From Candidatus Gottesmanbacteria bacterium (GTDB taxonomy: Bacteria > Patescibacteriota > Microgenomatia > UBA10105 > UBA927): a stretch of DNA of 64,000 nucleotides. The notes beneath the pieces are model-generated. The model did no database searches and was not told where the DNA came from. It saw only the letters and a program-made list of their open reading frames with translations. Numbering within the stretch: position 1 is the stretch's first letter; each line of letters starts with the position of its first letter. Positions 17,657-58,704 of the stretch are shown in pieces. A program made the position numbers and the translations under genes. The DNA lies in NCBI GenBank assembly GCA_963711735.1, contig CAVQFA010000005.1, positions 269,778 through 333,777 on the forward strand, read 5' to 3'.

Positions 17657-18538
17657 ATGGCAACAATAACCTTACAGGAACTACTCGAAGCCGGATGTCA
17701 TTTCGGTCATAAATCAGAGCGCTGGTATCCTACAGCGAGTGAATTTATATATACCGAAAAAGACGGTATTCACATTATTGATCTTGCAAAAACCAAGGAA
17801 GCGCTTGAACGGGCGATTGCATTTGTCCGCGATACGGTTGCATCAGGCGGGGAAATTCTTTTTGTTGCCACAAAGAGGCAGGCGAAAGATATCGTAAAAG
17901 AAATGGCAACAGATGCAAAAGCACCGTATTTTACCGAACGGTGGGTCGGAGGGTATCTCACAAACTGGGATTCTATCCGGAAAAATATTGAGAAGGCAAA
18001 TACTATGGCTGTTGATGAAGCATCCGGCGGATGGAAGAAGTTTCCCAAACACGAGCAGGTAAAGCTTGGGAAAATGCTCAAGAAACTGAACATGTTTTAT
18101 GGAGGCGTTCTTGATCTTCATATCATGCCGAAAGCACTCTTTATCATTGATGTCCGAAGGGAAGATCTGGTTGTCCGTGAAGCCCACAGAGTAAATATAC
18201 CGATTGTTGCTGTTGTTGATACCAATTCCGATCCGCGCGGTATTGATTATGTCATTCCCGCTAACGATGATGCTGTCGGTTCCATCAGGCTTATCACAAA
18301 ACTTATAATTTCTGCATATACTGAGGGGAAGAAGATCCGTGAGGTTGAAACGAAAACAGAAGAAGTACCGAAAGCGGAAACTAAAAAAAGTATGGAAAAA
18401 GCTGAGCCTTCACCAAAAGCAGTGAAAGCACCGGTAGCTGATGAAAAAAAGCCGGTGATTAAAGAAAGCATCAAACAGGAAACAGATACCGTAAAAGAAG
18501 CTCCCAAAAAACGCGGTCGTCCGAAAAAAATAAAATAA
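17657..18538 (+). CDS. rpsB: 30S ribosomal protein S2 with a Lys/Glu-rich C-terminal extension of about 60 aa
   Basis: MATITLQELLEAGCHFGHKSERW. The C-terminus ends ...APKKRGRPKKIK, an AT-hook-like GRP motif. Confidence 0.9.
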   Translation: MATITLQELLEAGCHFGHKSERWYPTASEFIYTEKDGIHIIDLAKTKEALERAIAFVRDTVASGGEILFVATKRQAKDIVKEMATDAKAPYFTERWVGGYLTNWDSIRKNIEKANTMAVDEASGGWKKFPKHEQVKLGKMLKKLNMFYGGVLDLHIMPKALFIIDVRREDLVVREAHRVNIPIVAVVDTNSDPRGIDYVIPANDDAVGSIRLITKLIISAYTEGKKIREVETKTEEVPKAETKKSMEKAEPSPKAVKAPVADEKKPVIKESIKQETDTVKEAPKKRGRPKKIK

Positions 18539-18542
18539 TTTT

Positions 18543-19001
18543 ATGAATATATCACTGGACCAGTTAAAAAAACTCCGTGAAGAGACTCAGGCAGGTGTAT
18601 CTGACTGCAGACAGGCTCTTGAGGATGCTGAAGGAGACTTCGCAAAAGCAAAAAAAATTCTCCAAAAGCGGGGAATGGAGAAAGCGGCTAAAAAGGAAGG
18701 TAAAGAGACTTCTGAAGGTGTCATTGAATCATATGTACATGCCAACGGGAAAATCGGCGTACTTCTGGAGCTTAAGTCAGAAACAGATTTCGTATCGCGC
18801 AATGACGAGTTCAAAAAGCTTGCACATGAGATTGCCATGCAGATAGCAGCTATGAACCCGAAAAACGTGAAGACGCTTCTGGCAAGTGCATATATCCGTG
18901 ATGCATCACAGACCATTGAAGAACTCCTCAAGATAACAATTGCAAAAGTCGGAGAAAACATTCAGATTACGCGCTTTATCCGTTACCAGCTAGGGGAATA
19001 A
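18543..19001 (+). CDS. tsf: Elongation factor Ts, a short 152-aa form
   Basis: N-terminal UBA-like LKKLREETQAGVSDCRQALEDAEGDFAKAKKIL. It lies directly downstream of rpsB. Confidence 0.8.
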   Translation: MNISLDQLKKLREETQAGVSDCRQALEDAEGDFAKAKKILQKRGMEKAAKKEGKETSEGVIESYVHANGKIGVLLELKSETDFVSRNDEFKKLAHEIAMQIAAMNPKNVKTLLASAYIRDASQTIEELLKITIAKVGENIQITRFIRYQLGE

Positions 19002-19053: not shown

Positions 19054-19623
19054 GTGCTAATGATAGATGCGTTGTACACCAAAACCCGTGACCAGATGAA
19101 AAAGGCGCTTGAGGTTACAGCGACAGATCTGTCTTCGATACGCTCAGGACGCGCAACCCCCGCACTTGTTGAACATCTTATCATTTCCGCATACGACGGT
19201 ACGCAAAAACTCAGACTTATGGAAATGGCAACGATAACGACTCAGGATACGAGAAATATTATTATTACTCCATATGATCCGTCACAAATCCGCGATATTG
19301 AAAAAAGTATACAGGAAGCAAATACCGGACTGACACCCGTTGTTGACGGTGAAGTTGTACGGATTACTATTCCGCAACTGTCGGAAGAACGAAGACGGGA
19401 ATATATCAAACTTGCTCATGCAAAACTTGAAGCGGGGAAAATTATGGTACGTCAGGTACGCCAGGAATCCATGAAAGACCTCAAACATGTCAAAGATGAC
19501 GCACTCATTTCGGAGGATGAAGAGAAAATCGGTGAAAAAAGGGTGCAGGAGCTTACCGATGAAATGATCGCAGAGTTAGAGTCGCTCGGAGCGCGTAAAG
19601 AGGCAGAACTTCTTCAAATTTGA
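19054..19623 (+). CDS. frr: Ribosome recycling factor
   Basis: 189 aa. The TATDLSSIRSGRATPALVEHL and ERRREYIKLAHAKLEAGKI segments are typical of RRF. Confidence 0.85.
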   Translation: MLMIDALYTKTRDQMKKALEVTATDLSSIRSGRATPALVEHLIISAYDGTQKLRLMEMATITTQDTRNIIITPYDPSQIRDIEKSIQEANTGLTPVVDGEVVRITIPQLSEERRREYIKLAHAKLEAGKIMVRQVRQESMKDLKHVKDDALISEDEEKIGEKRVQELTDEMIAELESLGARKEAELLQI

Positions 19624-20846: not shown

Positions 20847-22565
20847 ATGAAATTTTCCTCTCTTCCTGTCAGGACAAACAGAAATAACGTTTCGTATGAT
20901 TCCAAAAACGCTACACTTCTTATAAAGGCGGGATTTATAGATCAGGTTATGGCAGGTGTTTACACCTTTTTACCTCTTGGTGTTCGGGTACTTGCGAAAA
21001 TCGAACAGATCGTCCGCGAAGAGATGGATAAAATAGGATCAGAACTTCTTATGCCTGCTATTGTTCCAAAGGATTTATGGATAAAAACAGGTCGTTTTGA
21101 CAGCGTGAGTGTACTTCTAAAAGCCGTCGGGGCAAATAAGCTGTCCCAAACGGTTAATAAGGCAGACTATGTCCTCAGTTCCACTCACGAAGAGGTAGTG
21201 ACGCCCCTCATGCAGAAATTTAATACGAGTTACAAGGATTTCCCCTTTGCCGTATATCAGATCCAGACGAAATTCCGTAATGAACCGCGTGCTAAATCAG
21301 GACTTTTGCGATGCCGTGAGTTTCGTATGAAGGATCTATACAGTTTTCATACATCCGAGGAAGATCTCAAAACATTTTACGAAAAAGTGAAAGAAAGCTA
21401 TACGACTATATTTAAACGTCTTGGTCTCGGTAATGATACGTTTATAGTTCTTGCGTCAGGCGGTGATTTTACAAAGGATTTTTCCCACGAATTTCAGACA
21501 CGGTGTGAAACGGGAGAAGATACGATTTTTCGAATTCCTTCAACCGGAGTATGTTACAACAAGGAAGTAGCTCCGTCCATGGCTTGTCCCGCTCATTACA
21601 AACAGGAAGCTCCCGAACCACGACAGGAAATTCATGGACCCGGAATTATAGGTGTGTCCGATATTGCCAAATTTTTAAATCTTCCGGTTGAACAAATGAC
21701 AAAAACACTTATCTATGAAACGGATGATAAGCAAATTGTCGCAGCAGCAGTCCGCGGCGGATACGACATAAATGAAGAAAAATTGAAAAAAGTTCTTGGT
21801 GCAAAGTCAGTTCAGCTTGCATCACCGGAGGTAGTTAAAAAAGCCACAGGTGCATCAATTGGCTATATCGGGATTCTCAATCTTCCGAAAAGTATCCGTG
21901 TTGTCATGGATGAATCTGTCTATGGAAGGGTAAATTTCGAAACCGGAGCAAACCGTGATAACTACCATACCATAAATGTGAATTTCGATCGTGACATAGT
22001 TAAACCGGATACGTTTTATGATATCAAAACCGCCAAACAGGGTGACTGTAATCCGGAAACCAAAGAAACATACGAAGTATTTCAGGGATCAGAAGTAGGA
22101 AACATATTTCCCTTAAACACGAAATTTACGAAAGCATTCGGCTACACATTCATTGATTCGGACGGCACTCAAAAACCGATATTCATGGGATCGTATGGTA
22201 TCGGCACGTCACGTCTCATGGGTGTTATTGCAGAAAAATCAAGCGATGAGAACGGTCTTGTGTGGAATGATGCGGTTGCACCTTTTACCGTTCATCTGGT
22301 TTCCCTGAAAGGTTCTGAAAATCATGGTCAGGAAGTATATGACACGCTTCAAAATGAAAGCATCGAAGTCCTTTGGGACGACCGCGATGTTTCTGCAGGA
22401 GTTAAATTTTCTGACGCCGATCTGATTGGTATTCCGTACCGTCTCGTCGTATCTCTCAAAACCGGAGATAAGATTGAAGTGAAAAGCCGGAGTGAGAAAG
22501 AACCAATGCTTATTGATCTTCACGCATTCATCAAACGCATCAGAGAAGCATACGTTTCATCGTGA
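20847..22565 (+). CDS. proS: Prolyl-tRNA synthetase, bacterial type with an editing insertion
   Basis: 572 aa with class II motifs (FRNEPRAKSGLLRCREFRMKD), an INS-like central domain and a C-terminal anticodon-binding domain. Confidence 0.9.
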   Translation: MKFSSLPVRTNRNNVSYDSKNATLLIKAGFIDQVMAGVYTFLPLGVRVLAKIEQIVREEMDKIGSELLMPAIVPKDLWIKTGRFDSVSVLLKAVGANKLSQTVNKADYVLSSTHEEVVTPLMQKFNTSYKDFPFAVYQIQTKFRNEPRAKSGLLRCREFRMKDLYSFHTSEEDLKTFYEKVKESYTTIFKRLGLGNDTFIVLASGGDFTKDFSHEFQTRCETGEDTIFRIPSTGVCYNKEVAPSMACPAHYKQEAPEPRQEIHGPGIIGVSDIAKFLNLPVEQMTKTLIYETDDKQIVAAAVRGGYDINEEKLKKVLGAKSVQLASPEVVKKATGASIGYIGILNLPKSIRVVMDESVYGRVNFETGANRDNYHTINVNFDRDIVKPDTFYDIKTAKQGDCNPETKETYEVFQGSEVGNIFPLNTKFTKAFGYTFIDSDGTQKPIFMGSYGIGTSRLMGVIAEKSSDENGLVWNDAVAPFTVHLVSLKGSENHGQEVYDTLQNESIEVLWDDRDVSAGVKFSDADLIGIPYRLVVSLKTGDKIEVKSRSEKEPMLIDLHAFIKRIREAYVSS

Positions 22566-22596
22566 TTCAGGAAACATCGTCAATCCGGACTTTTGT

Positions 22597-23661
22597 ATGA
22601 AATCAGTTACCGTATCAGCACCATGTAAAGTCCATCTTCTCGGAGAACACACAGTTGTATACGGTAAACCTGCTATTCTTGCAGCTGTTGGTAAACGATT
22701 AACCGTTAATGCAACGGTTTTGGATAAACCTATTGTACGGATTCGCTCAGGATCTATTCCCTGTACAGAAGTACGCCTTGATGAAACTATAAAACAAGCC
22801 CGGAATGCCCGGATTATATGGAAGAAATTTTCCAAAACGAAAGATATCAAACTTCTTACGAACATAACCTCAGAAATTGTTGCGTATCCCTTAATTTGTG
22901 TCGGAGAAACGATTCTGTCACTCAAATATCCCGGGAAAAACGGAATAAGCATCGAAATCTCTTCTGATATTCCGATAGGCGGAGGACTCGGATCAAGTGC
23001 AGCAATTCCTGTCTCCATTGCTGCTTCACTCATGCAGCTTATGCATGGAAGGATGGATTTGGAACGTATAAACGGAATTGCCTATGTGTGCGAAAAAATC
23101 CGTCACGGGACGCCATCAGGCGGAGATAATGCAACAGTGACATACGGCGGACTCGTCTGGTATCAGAAAGAATCCGAAATTTTAAATGTAATTAAACCGA
23201 TTCCGTTTGATATACCGGATAACGTGAAAAAAAGTGTGCTTTTTATCAACTCAGGTAAACCGAAAGAATCAACAGGAGAGATGGTGTCTTTGGTGCGTTT
23301 GATGTATGATTCACAAAAGCAGAAAGTTCAGAAAATATTGGATAACCAGGAAAAATTAGTAATGGATATACTTCCTGCGATAAAATCAGGGGATATCAAT
23401 GCATGTATTTCTATAATCCGGAAAGGTGAAGCAAATCTTGAAAAGCTCGGCGTTTGTTCACCGAAAGTTTCGCGATTTATCCGTGAGATAGAACTAGCGG
23501 GAGGAGCAGCAAAGATCTGCGGTGGTGGCGGAAAAGCTAACGGAACCGGTATAGTACTTGCAATTCATCCGCATAAGGAAAAACTGAAGGATATTTTAGA
23601 TAATTCAGGATATCCGTTTTTTGAGGCAGAATTAGGGGTTGAGGGTGTTCAGGTATTATAA
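22597..23661 (+). CDS. mvk: Mevalonate kinase (GHMP kinase)
   Basis: SAPCKVHLLGEHTVVYGKPAILAAV N-terminal motif and the GHMP motif PIGGGLGSSAA. The true ATG is at 22597; the ORF-track start at 22492 overlaps proS. Confidence 0.75.
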   Translation: MKSVTVSAPCKVHLLGEHTVVYGKPAILAAVGKRLTVNATVLDKPIVRIRSGSIPCTEVRLDETIKQARNARIIWKKFSKTKDIKLLTNITSEIVAYPLICVGETILSLKYPGKNGISIEISSDIPIGGGLGSSAAIPVSIAASLMQLMHGRMDLERINGIAYVCEKIRHGTPSGGDNATVTYGGLVWYQKESEILNVIKPIPFDIPDNVKKSVLFINSGKPKESTGEMVSLVRLMYDSQKQKVQKILDNQEKLVMDILPAIKSGDINACISIIRKGEANLEKLGVCSPKVSRFIREIELAGGAAKICGGGGKANGTGIVLAIHPHKEKLKDILDNSGYPFFEAELGVEGVQVL

Positions 23662-23671
23662 ATTACATTAT

Positions 23672-25156
23672 ATGAAAAAAAATATAACAGTATCTGCACC
23701 TGGTAAGCTCATGCTTTTTGGCGAACATTCAGTGGTTTACGGATATCCGTGTCTTGCAACCGCAGTAGGTGAGCGTATGCAGGCAACAATTGAAACCATC
23801 CCGGAATCACAATTTGTTTTGGATGCACCGGATATAAATATATCAAAGTATACTAAGCCTATAAAAGATCTTGGAAAAGGGGATATTCCGGGTTGTGTAC
23901 GTTTTGTGGAAATTGCCGTACATAATTTTCATTCGAAGAATCCGTTACAAAGCGGAATTCATATATCTACATCATCCACATTTTCCCATGAATTCGGATT
24001 CGGAACATCTTCAGCTTCTACAGTATGCACTATCAAAGCACTTAGCCAAATTACAGGTCAAAATTTAGATAATAAGCAGATGTTTGATCTTGCATACAAA
24101 ACAATACTGGATGTTCAAAAAAAAGGATCAGGTTTTGATGTTGCAGTATCCGTATACGGAGGAACAATATATTATTCGCAAAGCGGAAAACATATTGAAC
24201 AAATTCCGTTTGCGATTGGGAGAGATGCAGTTTTTATTGTCGGATATACGGGTGTAAAAGCCGACACATGTAGTCTTGTCCGGCAGGTTGCTGAGAAAAA
24301 AGAAAAATATCCGGAGAAGGTGGAGAGAATTTTTACAGCAATTACTAAGTTAGTAGAAGATGCAAAAATTGCTCTTATAAATCATGATTGGGATCGACTC
24401 GGAACATATATGAATTTCAATCAGGAATATCTCCGGGATCTGGGTGTCAGCACAGAAAAACTCGAAACACTTATATCAGCTGCCAAATCCGAAGGGGCTT
24501 ATGGCGCAAAACTTTCCGGGGCCGGCGGAGGTGACTGCATGATTGCCATAGCTCCGGTACATAAAAAAGAAGCTGTAGAAAAGGCAATTCAGACGGCAGG
24601 TGGAATTGTTATTCCTGTTTGTCCCAACGCCGAAGGAGTCCGCACAGAAACATCAGATGATCCTAAAGAACAATTTATTGTAGTTGATGAAATGGATAAT
24701 GTCTTAGACTATAAAACACGTCATGCGTGTCATCACGATGCGCATCTGATCCATCGTGTCATCGGAGTTCATATATTCAACACAAACGGAGATATTCTGC
24801 TTCAGAAACGGTCATCAACCAAAGACCTGGGAGCGGGTTTATGGGGTTCATCGTGTGCGGGTCATGTTCTGAAAGGTGAAACATATGAAAACGCGGCAAA
24901 GCGTGAGCTTCTTGAGGAATTAGGAGTATCTCATGAAATTGCTCCGGTAAAGAAAATTATCGTGAGGGACAAGGAAGAAACAGAGATGGCGATGATCTAT
25001 ACCGCTACATCAGATGGTCCGTTTCATCCGGATCCGCAGGAAGTAGATGAAGTACGGTTTTTTACCAAAGACCAGATACTCCATGGTATGCTGAAGGGGA
25101 CGTTACGACTGACAAACTGCACAATAGAGAGCCTAAAAGCTATACATTATTTATAA
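23672..25156 (+). CDS. Fusion protein of an N-terminal GHMP kinase (probable phosphomevalonate kinase) and a C-terminal Nudix-type isopentenyl-diphosphate isomerase (IDI type 1)
   Basis: The N-terminus has [17 protein letters not shown] and [13 protein letters not shown] motifs. The C-terminal roughly 160 aa have [21 protein letters not shown]...[29 protein letters not shown], matching the IDI-1 Cys/Glu signature. Confidence 0.65.
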
Positions 25157-25166
25157 GGGTGAACGT

Positions 25167-26148
25167 ATGAAAGCAACAGCGAAAGCTCCGTCAAATATTG
25201 CATTTATCAAATATTGGGGAAAGAAAGATGAGACATTGAGACTTCCGGAAAACGGGAGCATATCCGTGAATTTATCCGGCATGGACAACGAACAACGACG
25301 GTTGAGTTTTCGTCCGGGTATGAAGGAGGACGAAATCCTGTATAACGACAAGAGTGAGAGTACGGCAGAAAATAGGGCAATAGTTCATCTGGATCGCATC
25401 GGAAATTAGCCGATATAGGTGAAAAAGCAAAAGTGTTACAAATAGCAATTTTCCTCACTCGACCGGACTTTCCTCATCCGCATCGGGTTTTGCAGCATTA
25501 ACTGTAGCCGGTTGCCGCGCAGCGGGATTAGATCTGAACGAAAAAGATTTGTCTATCCTTGCGCGCCAGGGATCGGGGAGTGCATGCCGTTCCATTCCAG
25601 ATGGGTTTGTGGAATGGCTAGACGGCAATACCAGCAATGAATCATTTGCTGTTTCGATCTACCCTCCGTCTTATTGGCCGGATTTGATTGATATCGTTGT
25701 TATTGTTACAACCGATAAAAAAGAAATATCGACAACAGAAGGAATGAAAGGAATGCGGAAAAGTCCGTTTTACCAGACTCGTTTGAGAGGTATGAAAGAT
25801 AAAATCCGTTTGTGTAAAGAAGCATTGAAAACAAAAGACTTAGAGAAACTTGGGGAACTTTCAGAAGCTGAAGCACTTGAAATGCATGCGGTCATGATAA
25901 GTCAGCGTCCTGCACTTCTCTATTGGACAAAAGGAACACTGCATCTTATGAAATCCGTTCAAAAATGGCGATACGGGGGATTACCGTGCTATTTCACCAT
26001 TAACACCGGACAGAATGTACACATTTTAACAACAAAAGATCACGAAAAGGAAATTCAGGAAAAACTCAAAAACATTGAAGATGTAAATCGTATCATAATC
26101 AACTCACCCTCGGATGGAGCTCATACCCTCAAAACTCATTTGTTTTAA
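25167..26148 (+). pseudogene. mvd: Diphosphomevalonate decarboxylase interrupted by two -1 frameshifts, possibly sequencing errors
   Basis: Frame 0 gives [31 protein letters not shown]...HLDRIGN then a stop. Frame 2 gives [16 protein letters not shown]. Frame 1 gives NSNFPHSTGLSSSASGFAALTVA...ARQGSGSACRS through to the end. All three pieces are collinear with MVD. Confidence 0.6.
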
Positions 26149-27955: not shown

Positions 27956-28405
27956 ATGCTTTTCGATTCAATAAAAGCGGATATTAATTTATCGCTCAAA
28001 AAAGGTGATAAAGTACGGGTTGACACACTCAGGTTCCTCGATAGTGCTTGTAGATATGCGGCTATCGCAAAGTATGGAGCAGATTGGGAAAGCAAGGTAA
28101 CTGATACAGATGTTTTGGATGCCGTAAAAAAGCAGGTGAAAACACATCGGGAATCAATCAAAGCTTTCACGGAGGGTGGACGTACTGATCTTGCTAACTC
28201 TGAAAAAGCTCAACTTACTATACTCGAATCATTTCTTCCGCCTGAAATATCCGATGATGATCTGAAGAAAATCCTGGCCCCGATTGTCCAATTAAGTGAG
28301 GATAATTTCGGAAAACTCATGGGTCGGGCGATGTCGGCCGTGGGAAATCGTGCAGACGGAGGACGCGTATCAGCAATTCTGAAAGATCTGCTTGCCCATA
28401 AATGA
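27956..28405 (+). CDS. GatB/YqeY-domain protein
   Basis: 149 aa in the conserved position directly after rpsU. Confidence 0.65.
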   Translation: MLFDSIKADINLSLKKGDKVRVDTLRFLDSACRYAAIAKYGADWESKVTDTDVLDAVKKQVKTHRESIKAFTEGGRTDLANSEKAQLTILESFLPPEISDDDLKKILAPIVQLSEDNFGKLMGRAMSAVGNRADGGRVSAILKDLLAHK

Positions 28406-50013: not shown

Positions 50014-51186
50014 ATGAAGATAAATAAAACAGTTATTCTTCTGGCGTTCGGCATACTTATTCTTGCAGGGTTGGTTAATTCAAATATATTCGGACTCAAC
50101 TGGAAATTTTTGGAAAAATATGTCACGGTGAAACTACCCGGATCTTCCGTTGTGAATCCTGTTCCGTTTTCAGAAAAAGTGAAAGTTGCTACGGAGGAAT
50201 CCGTAGTCATTACGGTTGTAGAAAAAGCAAGTCCCGCGGTCGTTACAATCGGAATTACGGCAACGAGAAATACAGGTAATTTCTTTCAGGTGGATCCGTT
50301 TGACTTCTTTAGCCCGTTTCAGCAAATTCCGGGAGGAGAGGAAAAAATTGATCAGGATATAGGTTCAGGATTTATTATATCTTCTGATGGGCTCATTGTG
50401 ACAAATAAACATGTAGTGAGCGAAACAGATGCATCATACAGAGTCATAGCCAAAGATGATAAAACATATTCAGTAGAGAAAATCTATCGTGATCCCACAA
50501 ACGACCTGGCAATTCTGAAAATCGCCGCATCCGGTCTTCCGACTGTTGAACTTGGTGATTCGTCTAAAATAAAAGTAGGTCAGATGGCGATAGCAATCGG
50601 TACAGCTCTCGGGGAATTCCGTTCGACTGTGACAACGGGCGTTATATCCGGAATGGGCAGAGGTATAACTGCAGGAAGCCTTTTTGAAGGGTATGCGGAA
50701 CGGCTCGATAATGTCATACAAACAGATGCAGCTATTAATCCCGGAAATTCGGGCGGCCCGCTCCTCAATTCAGCCGGTCAGGTCATCGGAATAAATACGG
50801 CTGTATCATCAGAAGGCCAGAATATCGGATTTGCACTTCCCATCAATGTTGTGAAGGATGCGGTCGATAATTTCAATAAAACCGGCCAGTTCAACAGGCC
50901 ATATCTGGGTGTACGGTATAAAATCGTAACGAAGGATGTTGCAATTCTCAACGATGTTCCTGAAGGAGCGTATATAATTGAAGTAGTTACGGGCAGTCCC
51001 GCAGAGAAAGCGGGATTAAAGGTAGGGGACATTATCATAAATATTGACAGTAAAAGGCTGAAGGGTGAAAACGCAGAACTCGGAAAAACCATAGGGACGA
51101 AGAAAGCCGGAGATATAATAAAACTTATTATCTGGAGAAGCGGAAAAGAACAGACTGTTCCGGTTACACTTGGTACTCAGGGGTAA
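50014..51186 (+). CDS. htrA: HtrA/DegP-family serine protease with a C-terminal PDZ domain
   Basis: Catalytic triad context (TNKHVV, DLAILKI, GNSGGPLLN). Confidence 0.8.
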   Translation: MKINKTVILLAFGILILAGLVNSNIFGLNWKFLEKYVTVKLPGSSVVNPVPFSEKVKVATEESVVITVVEKASPAVVTIGITATRNTGNFFQVDPFDFFSPFQQIPGGEEKIDQDIGSGFIISSDGLIVTNKHVVSETDASYRVIAKDDKTYSVEKIYRDPTNDLAILKIAASGLPTVELGDSSKIKVGQMAIAIGTALGEFRSTVTTGVISGMGRGITAGSLFEGYAERLDNVIQTDAAINPGNSGGPLLNSAGQVIGINTAVSSEGQNIGFALPINVVKDAVDNFNKTGQFNRPYLGVRYKIVTKDVAILNDVPEGAYIIEVVTGSPAEKAGLKVGDIIINIDSKRLKGENAELGKTIGTKKAGDIIKLIIWRSGKEQTVPVTLGTQG

Positions 51187-51197
51187 TGTGATACGTT

Positions 51198-51896
51198 TTA
51201 TACTTCAGAAGCCATAAGCGCATCGCTTACTTTGTGCAGTTTTCCGTTTACGATATCATCAAGGTTATGCCATGATTTGTTTATCCGGTGGTCGGTAACC
51301 CTGTTTTGCGGAAAGTTATAGGTTCGGATTTTTTCTGCTCTCATACCCCGACCGATAATGCTTCGTGCCGCTCCGACCGTTTGGGCATTTTTTACCTCTT
51401 CCTGTTCCCAGAGTTTTGCACGGAGCATGGACAATGCAACCGCCCGGTTCTGGAACTGATCTCTTTCAGTCTGGCAGGCCACAACAATACCTGATGGTTT
51501 ATGCCGGAGACGTACAGCTGATGATACTTTATTGACGTTTTGTCCTCCGTGTCCGCCTGAACGGAAAAAGTCCCATTCCAAATCTTCGTTTCGTACCATA
51601 ACGTCATTTTCCGGTATCTCAGGAAGAACAGCTACCGTTGCCGTTGATGTGTGAATTCTTCCTGATCTTTCAGTTGTCGGTATCCGTTGTACTCTGTGGG
51701 TTCCTGCTTCATACTGGAGTCTTGTAAATGCATCAGTTCCTTTGATCCTCACTGCATTTTCCGATACTTCTTCAACTTTCCAACCGAGGATATTCGCATA
51801 TCTGGTATACATACGCATAAGATCCATTGCCCAGATTTTCGCTTCATCACCACCCGGTCCTGCACGAAATTCAAGAATTGCGACATTGGAATTCAT
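51198..51896 (-). CDS. prfA: Peptide chain release factor 1 homologue lacking N-terminal domain 1 (about 232 aa rather than about 360)
   Basis: It begins at the domain-2 region (NVAILEFRAGPGGDEA). It has the PxT-type tripeptide context (RIPTTERSGRIHTS) and GGQ (SGGHGGQNVNK). A TTG six codons upstream gives the ORF-track coordinate 51902. Confidence 0.7.
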   Translation of the reverse strand: MNSNVAILEFRAGPGGDEAKIWAMDLMRMYTRYANILGWKVEEVSENAVRIKGTDAFTRLQYEAGTHRVQRIPTTERSGRIHTSTATVAVLPEIPENDVMVRNEDLEWDFFRSGGHGGQNVNKVSSAVRLRHKPSGIVVACQTERDQFQNRAVALSMLRAKLWEQEEVKNAQTVGAARSIIGRGMRAEKIRTYNFPQNRVTDHRINKSWHNLDDIVNGKLHKVSDALMASEV

Positions 51897-51912
51897 ATTC
51901 AATTATTAGTCT

Positions 51913-52221
51913 TTATCTTAAAGATGAAAGCATGTCTTTGAGGCTCTTCTGCTGGCGAATGGCTTCTTCTTTGTCTTTTTTCTTCTTTTTCTTGTCAACC
52001 AGTGCTTTTTTCTGGGAATCGCCGAATTGTTTCATCTTCTGGAATTTTTCAACCCGTCCGAGCGCATCGACAAACTTCATCTCTCCGGTAAAAAACGGAT
52101 GGCATTTGGCACAAACATCCACTTTTATCGTTTGCTTCGTGGCACCCACCGTAAACGTATTACCGCAGGCACACGTAACAATTGCATCACTGAACCACTG
52201 AGGATGGATGGATTTCTTCAT
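51913..52221 (-). CDS. rpmE: 50S ribosomal protein L31 with a Lys-rich C-terminal extension of about 30 aa
   Basis: [47 protein letters not shown] followed by ...[32 protein letters not shown]. The ORF-track extension upstream to 52461 has no homology. Confidence 0.75.
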
Positions 52222-58536: not shown

Positions 58537-58622
58537 GCCATGGTGTTGGAATTGGTAGACAAGCTGGTCTCAAAAACCAGTGGACATAAAAGTCCGTGTG
58601 GGTTCGATTCCCACCCATGGCA
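58537..58622 (+). tRNA. tRNA-Leu (anticodon CAA), class II with a long variable arm; no encoded CCA
   Basis: Manual fold. Acceptor GCCATGG/CCATGGC, D-arm TTG-AATTGGTAG-ACAA, anticodon stem CTGGT/ACCAG with loop CTCAAAA, 17-nt variable arm, T-arm GTGGG-TTCGATT-CCCAC, discriminator A. Confidence 0.8.
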
Positions 58623-58630
58623 CAATTGTC

Positions 58631-58704
58631 GGCAAGGCGGGCGCGCAGGTCTCAAAAACCTGTGAAGCTAACACTTCGTGAGGGTTCGATTCCCTCCTTG
58701 GCCA
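58631..58704 (+). other. Degenerate tRNA-Leu(CAA)-like copy lacking the D-loop (probable tRNA pseudogene)
   Basis: GGCAAGG CG GGCGCGC, then an intact anticodon arm (CAGGT-CTCAAAA-ACCTG), a variable arm, T-arm GAGGG-TTCGATT-CCCTC and acceptor 3' strand CTTGGCC-A. The 5' acceptor is one C short and about 12 nt of D-loop are missing. Confidence 0.45.

Follow-up and report, generated by a model that had tools for sequence, protein, structure and literature searches.

The 64-kb stretch of DNA analysed here (the window), from an ultrasmall bacterium of the CPR (Patescibacteria), encodes a release factor of 232 residues that is, in all likelihood, the housekeeping RF1 of the organism, namely a prfA orthologue whose N-terminal helical domain 1 was lost in evolution. 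Through domain 1, RF1 touches RF3 and the L11/L7-L12 stalk region, and nearly all bacteria have this domain in both RF1 and RF2. A domain-1-less housekeeping RF1 would be a new natural variant of the factor, well supported at the sequence level, and no description of one in CPR bacteria was found in the literature. We further infer an active protein that serves as the sole RF1 of a genome without RF3. For the genome around the gene, the analysis covered the window, which is part of a 371-kb contig, and a stretch of about 20 kb in either of two relatives. The features of the locus are collected in Table 1.

Table 1. Features of the release-factor locus, in window coordinates
Feature	Position	Strand	Basis
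HtrA-like protease gene, convergent, directly downstream of the RF gene	50014..51186	+	Pfam of the identical gene; synteny in L001, L002 and L054
Probable prfA orthologue, 232-aa RF1 (domains 2, 3 and 4; no domain 1)	51198..51896	-	Pfam, NCBIfam, solved RF1 match, AF2 model
GGQ catalytic motif, residues 117-119	51540..51548	-	Sequence; invariant in the family alignment
PxT 'anticodon' tripeptide Pro-Thr-Thr, residues 73-75, within QRIPTTERSGRIHTS	51672..51680	-	Sequence and family alignment
Spacer of 16 nt from the L31 stop to the RF ATG, holding the alternative TTG (51902-51900)	51897..51912	-	Direct sequence reading, ORF list
rpmE for ribosomal protein L31 (102 aa), next to the RF gene on its 5' side	51913..52221	-	Pfam Ribosomal_L31, NCBIfam L31
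Lys-rich C-terminal extension of L31, ~40 aa, ~residues 63-102 (KKKKK ... KSLKEML)	51916..52035	-	Conserved in L001 and L002

Profile searches placed the missing part at the N-terminus. Pfam PCRF was matched at profile positions 98-194 of 194, with positions 1-97 unmatched, and the Pfam RF-1 domain was found complete (positions 3-116 of 116, 127 bits). In the same way, the two NCBIfam prfA models aligned from position 104 of 347 (PRK00591, 324.5 bits) and from position 112 of 361 (TIGR00019, 315 bits), and these scores stay under the respective cut-offs of 400 and 423 because the N-terminal part is missing. The best solved match was the RF1 of T. maritima (1rq0), over residues 85-321, and E. 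coli RF1 was aligned over its residues 111-342. Taken together, the points at which models and structures begin to align imply that the first ~105-110 residues, that is domain 1, are absent. This bears out the first-pass annotation, which had described an RF1 homologue without domain 1 and had proposed profile searches for the PCRF and RF-1 domains as a check. The remaining domains 2, 3 and 4 share 43-48% identity with solved RF1s, relative to which the domain-2 hairpin carries a deletion of about 10 residues. An AF2 model of moderate confidence (pLDDT 67) superposed with TM values of 0.77-0.79 on 1rq0, 1zbt and 6orl, which are compact, free or pre-accommodated forms of RF1.

The likely start of the gene is the ATG, which is used by gene callers and by all close homologues (N-terminus MNxN), and the protein then begins MNSNVAILEFRAGPGGDEA. 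Starting at the alternative TTG, the reading frame would span 51198..51902 on the minus strand and encode 234 aa. The 232-aa form is on record in public assemblies (P0001), and an exact look-up of the 234-aa form returned no record. The distance of 10 nt that had been given at first between the L31 gene and the RF gene is correct when counted from the L31 stop codon (51915-51913) to the TTG, but the spacer to the likely ATG start is 16 nt. Two in-frame TAA codons lie directly 5' of the TTG and the L31 gene is directly upstream, so that there is neither room for domain 1 nor a frameshift that could restore it. Moreover, an HMM of domain 1, trained on 36 full-length RF1s, matched no frame of the window, in agreement with the earlier reading of the upstream frames. 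Neither the window nor any of 53 related loci contained an RF paralogue. A tblastn match at 28004-28264 (E 0.15) was rejected as such a paralogue, being an unrelated 149-aa ORF without GGQ.

Apart from the short length itself, nothing speaks for an artefact, whether a misplaced start, a frameshift, an assembly error or a pseudogene in decay. The identical RF protein with the same neighbours was found on a 6-kb contig of an independent Logan assembly. At least 120 protein clusters match it at 77-84% identity (best 120 listed), all of them 225-253 aa long and some of them named Gottesmanbacteria or Patescibacteria. The same short length, with in-frame stops and L31 upstream, recurs in about 30 GTDB species. 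In addition, comparison with ten orthologues gave dN values of 0.14-0.22 with saturated dS, hence a dN/dS below 0.1. An error upstream of 51896, which the first-pass annotation had named among the points that could overturn its reading, is excluded by the recurrence of the 230-238-aa form in independent assemblies and in dozens of species. By these sequence comparisons an artefact appears effectively refuted, and we give it almost no credence.

The decoding and catalytic elements are those of an ordinary RF1. The PTT tripeptide and the GGQ motif are in place, as had been noted from the sequence alone, the helix-5 tip reads GPGGDEA and the switch-loop region is GRGMRAEKIRTYNFPQNRVTDHR. Across 26 family members, P73, T75, E76 and G79-S84 are invariant, and so are the helix-5 tip GxGGxEA, QRxPxTE, GRIHTS, GGQ and the region GRGxRAEKIRTYNxPQxRxTDHR. 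The prfB model (TIGR00020) scored 212.8 bits against a cut-off of 370, and the position of the RF2 tripeptide SPF is held by PTT. Likewise, PDB matches to RF1s ranged from E 1e-75 to 1e-60 and those to RF2 were 1e-42 or weaker. The PrfH model (TIGR03072) reached 66.4 bits against 166.65 and only over residues 100-190, and ArfB 52 bits against 100 over residues 99-134 only. No RtcB gene was found near the RF gene or in the gene tables of the locus and its relatives, the upstream gene being rpmE. The profile scores and motifs thus support an RF1-type protein, distinct from RF2, PrfH and ArfB, and the original view that the factor is not PrfH-like can be retained.

Two relatives of the protein stand out. 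In a Shapirobacteria MAG (PFLE01000004.1, locus L029, 4001-4699), the 232-aa RF1 has SSHGGHNVQK where all others have GGQNVNK; the GGH may mark a factor without activity or be an error in the sequence of this one MAG. The cluster representative P0121 (477 aa) contains two stretches matched by PCRF and two matched by RF-1: a complete PCRF is followed by about 80 additional residues and by a segment with 53% identity to the RF protein of the window. Insertion, duplication or fusion may account for it.

The genomic position of the gene is that of prfA. Among 50 related GTDB species representatives, rpmE lies directly 5' of the RF gene in 49, at any RF length. Two contigs, of 1.22 Mb and 1.07 Mb, keep HisRS-EamA-L31-RF in this order, with convergent HtrA and CtpA genes after it. 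By increasing coordinate, the window has YchF (46414), SSB (47851), CtpA (48703), HtrA (50014), RF and L31. A related metagenomic contig (L054, 444 kb, apparently a small genome) carries L31 (76 aa), a full-length RF1 of 367 aa and prmC, with HtrA, L9, CtpA, S18, SSB, S6 and YchF on the other strand, and the same RF1 protein was also found on a 1.14-Mb contig. Since this full-length RF1 occupies the same syntenic slot, the window gene can be regarded as the prfA orthologue. It sits in the rpmE-prfA position, and the prmC part of that context is missing: the HtrA gene occupies the slot where prmC is found in relatives with a longer RF1.

It is rather improbable that the gene is instead an accessory paralogue, PrfH-like or of the rescue type, beside a canonical full-length RF1 encoded elsewhere. 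Such a view could draw on the fact that other class-I release factor homologues without domain 1 (PrfH) are accessory factors, on the scores below the prfA equivalog cut-offs and on the partial coverage of the genome by the sequence examined. On the contrary, the gene lies in the ancestral slot with the gene order of the full-length prfA of L054, its PxT and helix-5 residues are of the RF1 and not of the PrfH type, and both the PrfH score and the want of an RtcB neighbour point the same way. RF1s of intermediate length at the same locus indicate the erosion of a single gene. In addition, no short and long RF1 clusters had a longest contig of equal length among the best 120 clusters of two lists, which is a weak argument in the same direction.

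A survey of RF1 length across related lineages, which had been suggested at the outset, showed that domain 1 is graded within Microgenomates. The series was established from ORF bounds relative to upstream stops, alignment, domain-1 HMM coordinates and an NJ tree. Domain 1 is full in the 351-367-aa RF1s of Planctomycetota, of a Saccharimonadales MAG and of L054. Daviesbacteria have RF1s of 301-311 aa that match only positions ~53-99 of the 113 positions of the domain-1 HMM, and a similar half of the domain is present in Collierbacteria (about 332-335 aa), together with the domain-2 deletion. About 17 residues of domain 1 remain in Amesbacteria and L032 (about 256-268 aa), and none in Gottesman-, Shapiro- and Roizmanbacteria and L033 (226-238 aa). 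A 324-aa ORF in L022 was rejected as a longer RF1, since it is a spurious extension through the L31 gene in another frame.

Another search, started from the 250-aa RF1 of L047, revealed a separate large family of RF1s of 243-250 aa, some of them named Nealsonbacteria, Minisyncoccales or Parcubacteria, in which the domain-2 hairpin is kept. Among the best 120 matches listed, these short forms are interleaved with forms of 344-370 aa at 67-72% identity. Hence domain 1 disappeared several times independently in Patescibacteria, the interleaving indicating that the loss in Parcubacteria was an independent one. Some cluster representatives combine a short N-terminus with a C-terminal surplus of 80-180 residues, in part PrmC_N (P0138, P0162, P0164, P0241 and others). 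They look like gene-call fusions or fragments and were not counted as domain-1-less forms.

The lineage names used here rest on records named Gottesman-, Davies-, Shapiro-, Roizman-, Collier- and Amesbacteria. Many GTDB titles are unreliable for taxonomy: many representative MAGs that are clearly Microgenomates bear the title 'uncultured Gammaproteobacteria bacterium', evidently a mislabel, and some Parcubacteria-like MAGs the title 'Saccharibacteria' (records of L004-L008, L010-L013, L015-L017, L026, L027, L033, L034, L038, L042 and L051).

The presence of prmC next to prfA is confined to loci in which at least part of domain 1 survives. It directly follows prfA in all 13 Daviesbacteria loci, in L043, in L048 and in L054/L055, and the loci with prmC downstream of the RF gene are L031, L034-L043, L048, L051, L053 and L054. 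No prmC was found downstream (about 4 kb in most loci) of any of about 35 domain-1-less genes, nor in the 64-kb window, L001 or L002. The PrmC of Daviesbacteria is itself short (about 225-235 aa; L035 4683-5384, L053 4342-5034 and further Daviesbacteria loci), beginning at the methyltransferase domain and lacking the PrmC N-terminal domain.

A wider reading seems possible to us, although we think it less likely than not: large parts of the Patescibacteria, among them Gottesman-, Shapiro-, Roizman- and Amesbacteria as well as many Parcubacteria, may have as their only RF1 a tRNA-sized core without domain 1, this domain having been lost at least three times independently and along with prmC, in genomes that would also be devoid of RF3. 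If so, RF3-coupled recycling, the contact of RF1 with the stalk and perhaps the methylation of GGQ would be dispensable across a major bacterial radiation, and termination in its minimal, possibly ancestral-like form could be studied in these organisms as natural models.

The L31 gene that precedes the release factor, and that is probably co-transcribed with it, has a peculiarity of its own. Pfam Ribosomal_L31 covers residues 1-62 of the protein and the Lys-rich tail follows. The unusual tail described in the first-pass annotation is real, but it measures about 40 aa and not 30, and it is a trait of Microgenomates as a whole: it was found in all Microgenomates loci including Daviesbacteria (L031-L042), with L31 proteins of 100-108 aa (for instance at 9600-9908 in L001 and 9559-9867 in L002). 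On the contrary, it is missing from the loci of Parcubacteria type and from those of Saccharimonadales and Planctomycetota, whose L31 has 73-93 aa. The tail thus occurs beside a half-retained domain 1 in Daviesbacteria, and truncated lineages other than Microgenomates lack it. It does not track the truncation of the release factor, and the link that had been implied between the two finds no support.

The same distribution weighs against the idea that domain 1 is supplied in trans, by a separate small ORF or by this tail. The idea has in its favour that the two genes, 16 nt apart, are probably co-expressed and that the tail is both unusual and conserved. However, in the roughly 400 kb made up by the window and all domain-1-less loci, the domain-1 HMM detected no ORF encoding the domain on its own. 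Besides, L31 is located at the bridge between the central protuberance and the 30S head, a site distant from the L11 stalk region to which domain 1 binds. We consider a supply in trans very unlikely.

The stop codons of the 61 long ORFs of the window were TAA in 38 cases, TGA in 14 and TAG in 9. All three being used, the code is the standard one and RF1 activity is needed for UAG; RF2 is expected to be encoded elsewhere in the genome. The use of TGA, together with the fact that no prfB was seen in the sequence examined, could also suggest a truncated factor with broadened specificity that replaces both RF1 and RF2. Yet the decoding elements (PxT, Q70 and GRIHTS) are ordinary for RF1, the RF1 models score far above the RF2 model, and the sequence covers about 5% of a genome of about 1 Mb, so that the absence of prfB carries no weight. 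Such a replacement appears highly improbable.

With its decoding and catalytic elements intact, the window RF should act as any RF1 does, recognizing UAA and UAG and hydrolysing peptidyl-tRNA, an activity predicted from its residues. The superdomain formed by domains 2 and 4 would use the helix-5 tip, the PxT loop and GRIHTS to read these two codons in the ribosomal A site, and the switch-loop region would support opening of the factor. Domain 3 would then bring GGQ to the peptidyl-transferase centre, leading to hydrolysis of the peptidyl-tRNA. Without domain 1, recycling stimulated by RF3 would not take place and the factor would leave the ribosome spontaneously, followed by RRF-dependent recycling of the subunits; RRF is encoded in the window at 19054-19623. 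It is predicted that prfC is absent from domain-1-less genomes, that factor release is spontaneous or driven by RRF and EF-G, and that the stalk or L11 is possibly altered. For RF2, domain 1 may be retained, since a truncated RF2 performs poorly in E. coli.

That termination here would be independent of RF3 is suggested by the role of domain 1 as the RF3 and stalk domain and by a precedent in E. coli. In the work of Mora et al. (2003), as summarised in PMC1586002, E. coli RF1 without domain 1 kept codon specificity and peptide release in vitro and worked in vivo. There, domain 1 is described as needed only for stimulating nucleotide exchange on RF3, and its deletion abolished this exchange as well as RF3-stimulated recycling. 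According to the same summary, cells can do without prfC, and small genomes lack it.

Given this precedent, a natural loss of domain 1 is moderately surprising. The engineered E. coli protein (PMC1586002) likewise consists of domains 2-4 only, but the window RF is natural, lineage-wide and selected, with an activity that is predicted. The repeated loss of domain 1 in related lineages suggests that this part of RF1 is dispensable in nature. The short RF1s would be a lineage-wide and repeatedly evolved counterpart of the E. coli truncation, and would show that RF1 can do without domain 1 under real selection.

Compared with canonical RF1 (TIGR00019/PRK00591), the window protein shares the PxT, the GGQ, the helix-5 tip and the switch-loop region, with rpmE upstream of the gene as in many bacteria, and it differs by the absence of domain 1 (about 105-110 residues), of about 10 residues of the domain-2 hairpin and of prmC after the gene. 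PrfH (RFH) is also a class-I homologue that naturally lacks domain 1 and keeps the codon-recognition domain and GGQ. However, the recognition residues of PrfH are altered, RtcB is its partner, and horizontal transfer has given it a sporadic distribution, whereas the window RF has RF1-type residues, the genomic context of prfA and vertical inheritance, and matches PrfH over the GGQ domain only. ArfB, ICT1 and C12orf65 have in common with it the GGQ peptidyl-tRNA hydrolase domain, but ArfB-type factors have no codon-recognition domain and end in a basic C-terminal tail, while domains 2 and 4 are complete in the window RF. A survey of release factors from 2019 presented PrfH and ArfB as the forms without the N-terminal domain and did not mention CPR RF1 (PMC6514570).

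The domain-1-less form also has consequences for annotation. NCBI names the relatives 'peptide chain release factor-like protein' or 'PCRF domain-containing protein', and annotators and marker sets based on TIGR00019 miss prfA in such genomes because the domain is lacking. Missed prfA calls affect completeness estimates and functional inventories of CPR genomes, and recognizing the short form is therefore useful for annotation as well as for the study of minimal termination.

Several other features of the window were observed along the way. The EF-Ts gene (18543-19001, plus strand) encodes only 152 aa, with a Pfam EF_TS match restricted to profile positions 1-76 of 204, and this shortened gene adjoins those of S2 (17657-18538) and RRF. 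Directly after tRNA-Leu(CAA) (58537-58623), a second tRNA-like match of Rfam lies at 58631-58704 (plus strand), with 29.6 bits against a cut-off of 29 and no ARAGORN call. Genes for the small and large subunits of a NiFe-hydrogenase (Oxidored_q6, NiFeSe_Hases) were found at 406-888 (minus strand) and, on a Logan contig, just upstream of the window, next to a nucleotide-salvage cluster of dCTP deaminase, dNK, Tmk, TK and PNP. Finally, a mevalonate-pathway-like run at 22492-26148 (plus strand) encodes a diphosphomevalonate decarboxylase-like protein and two GHMP kinases, one with a NUDIX fusion.
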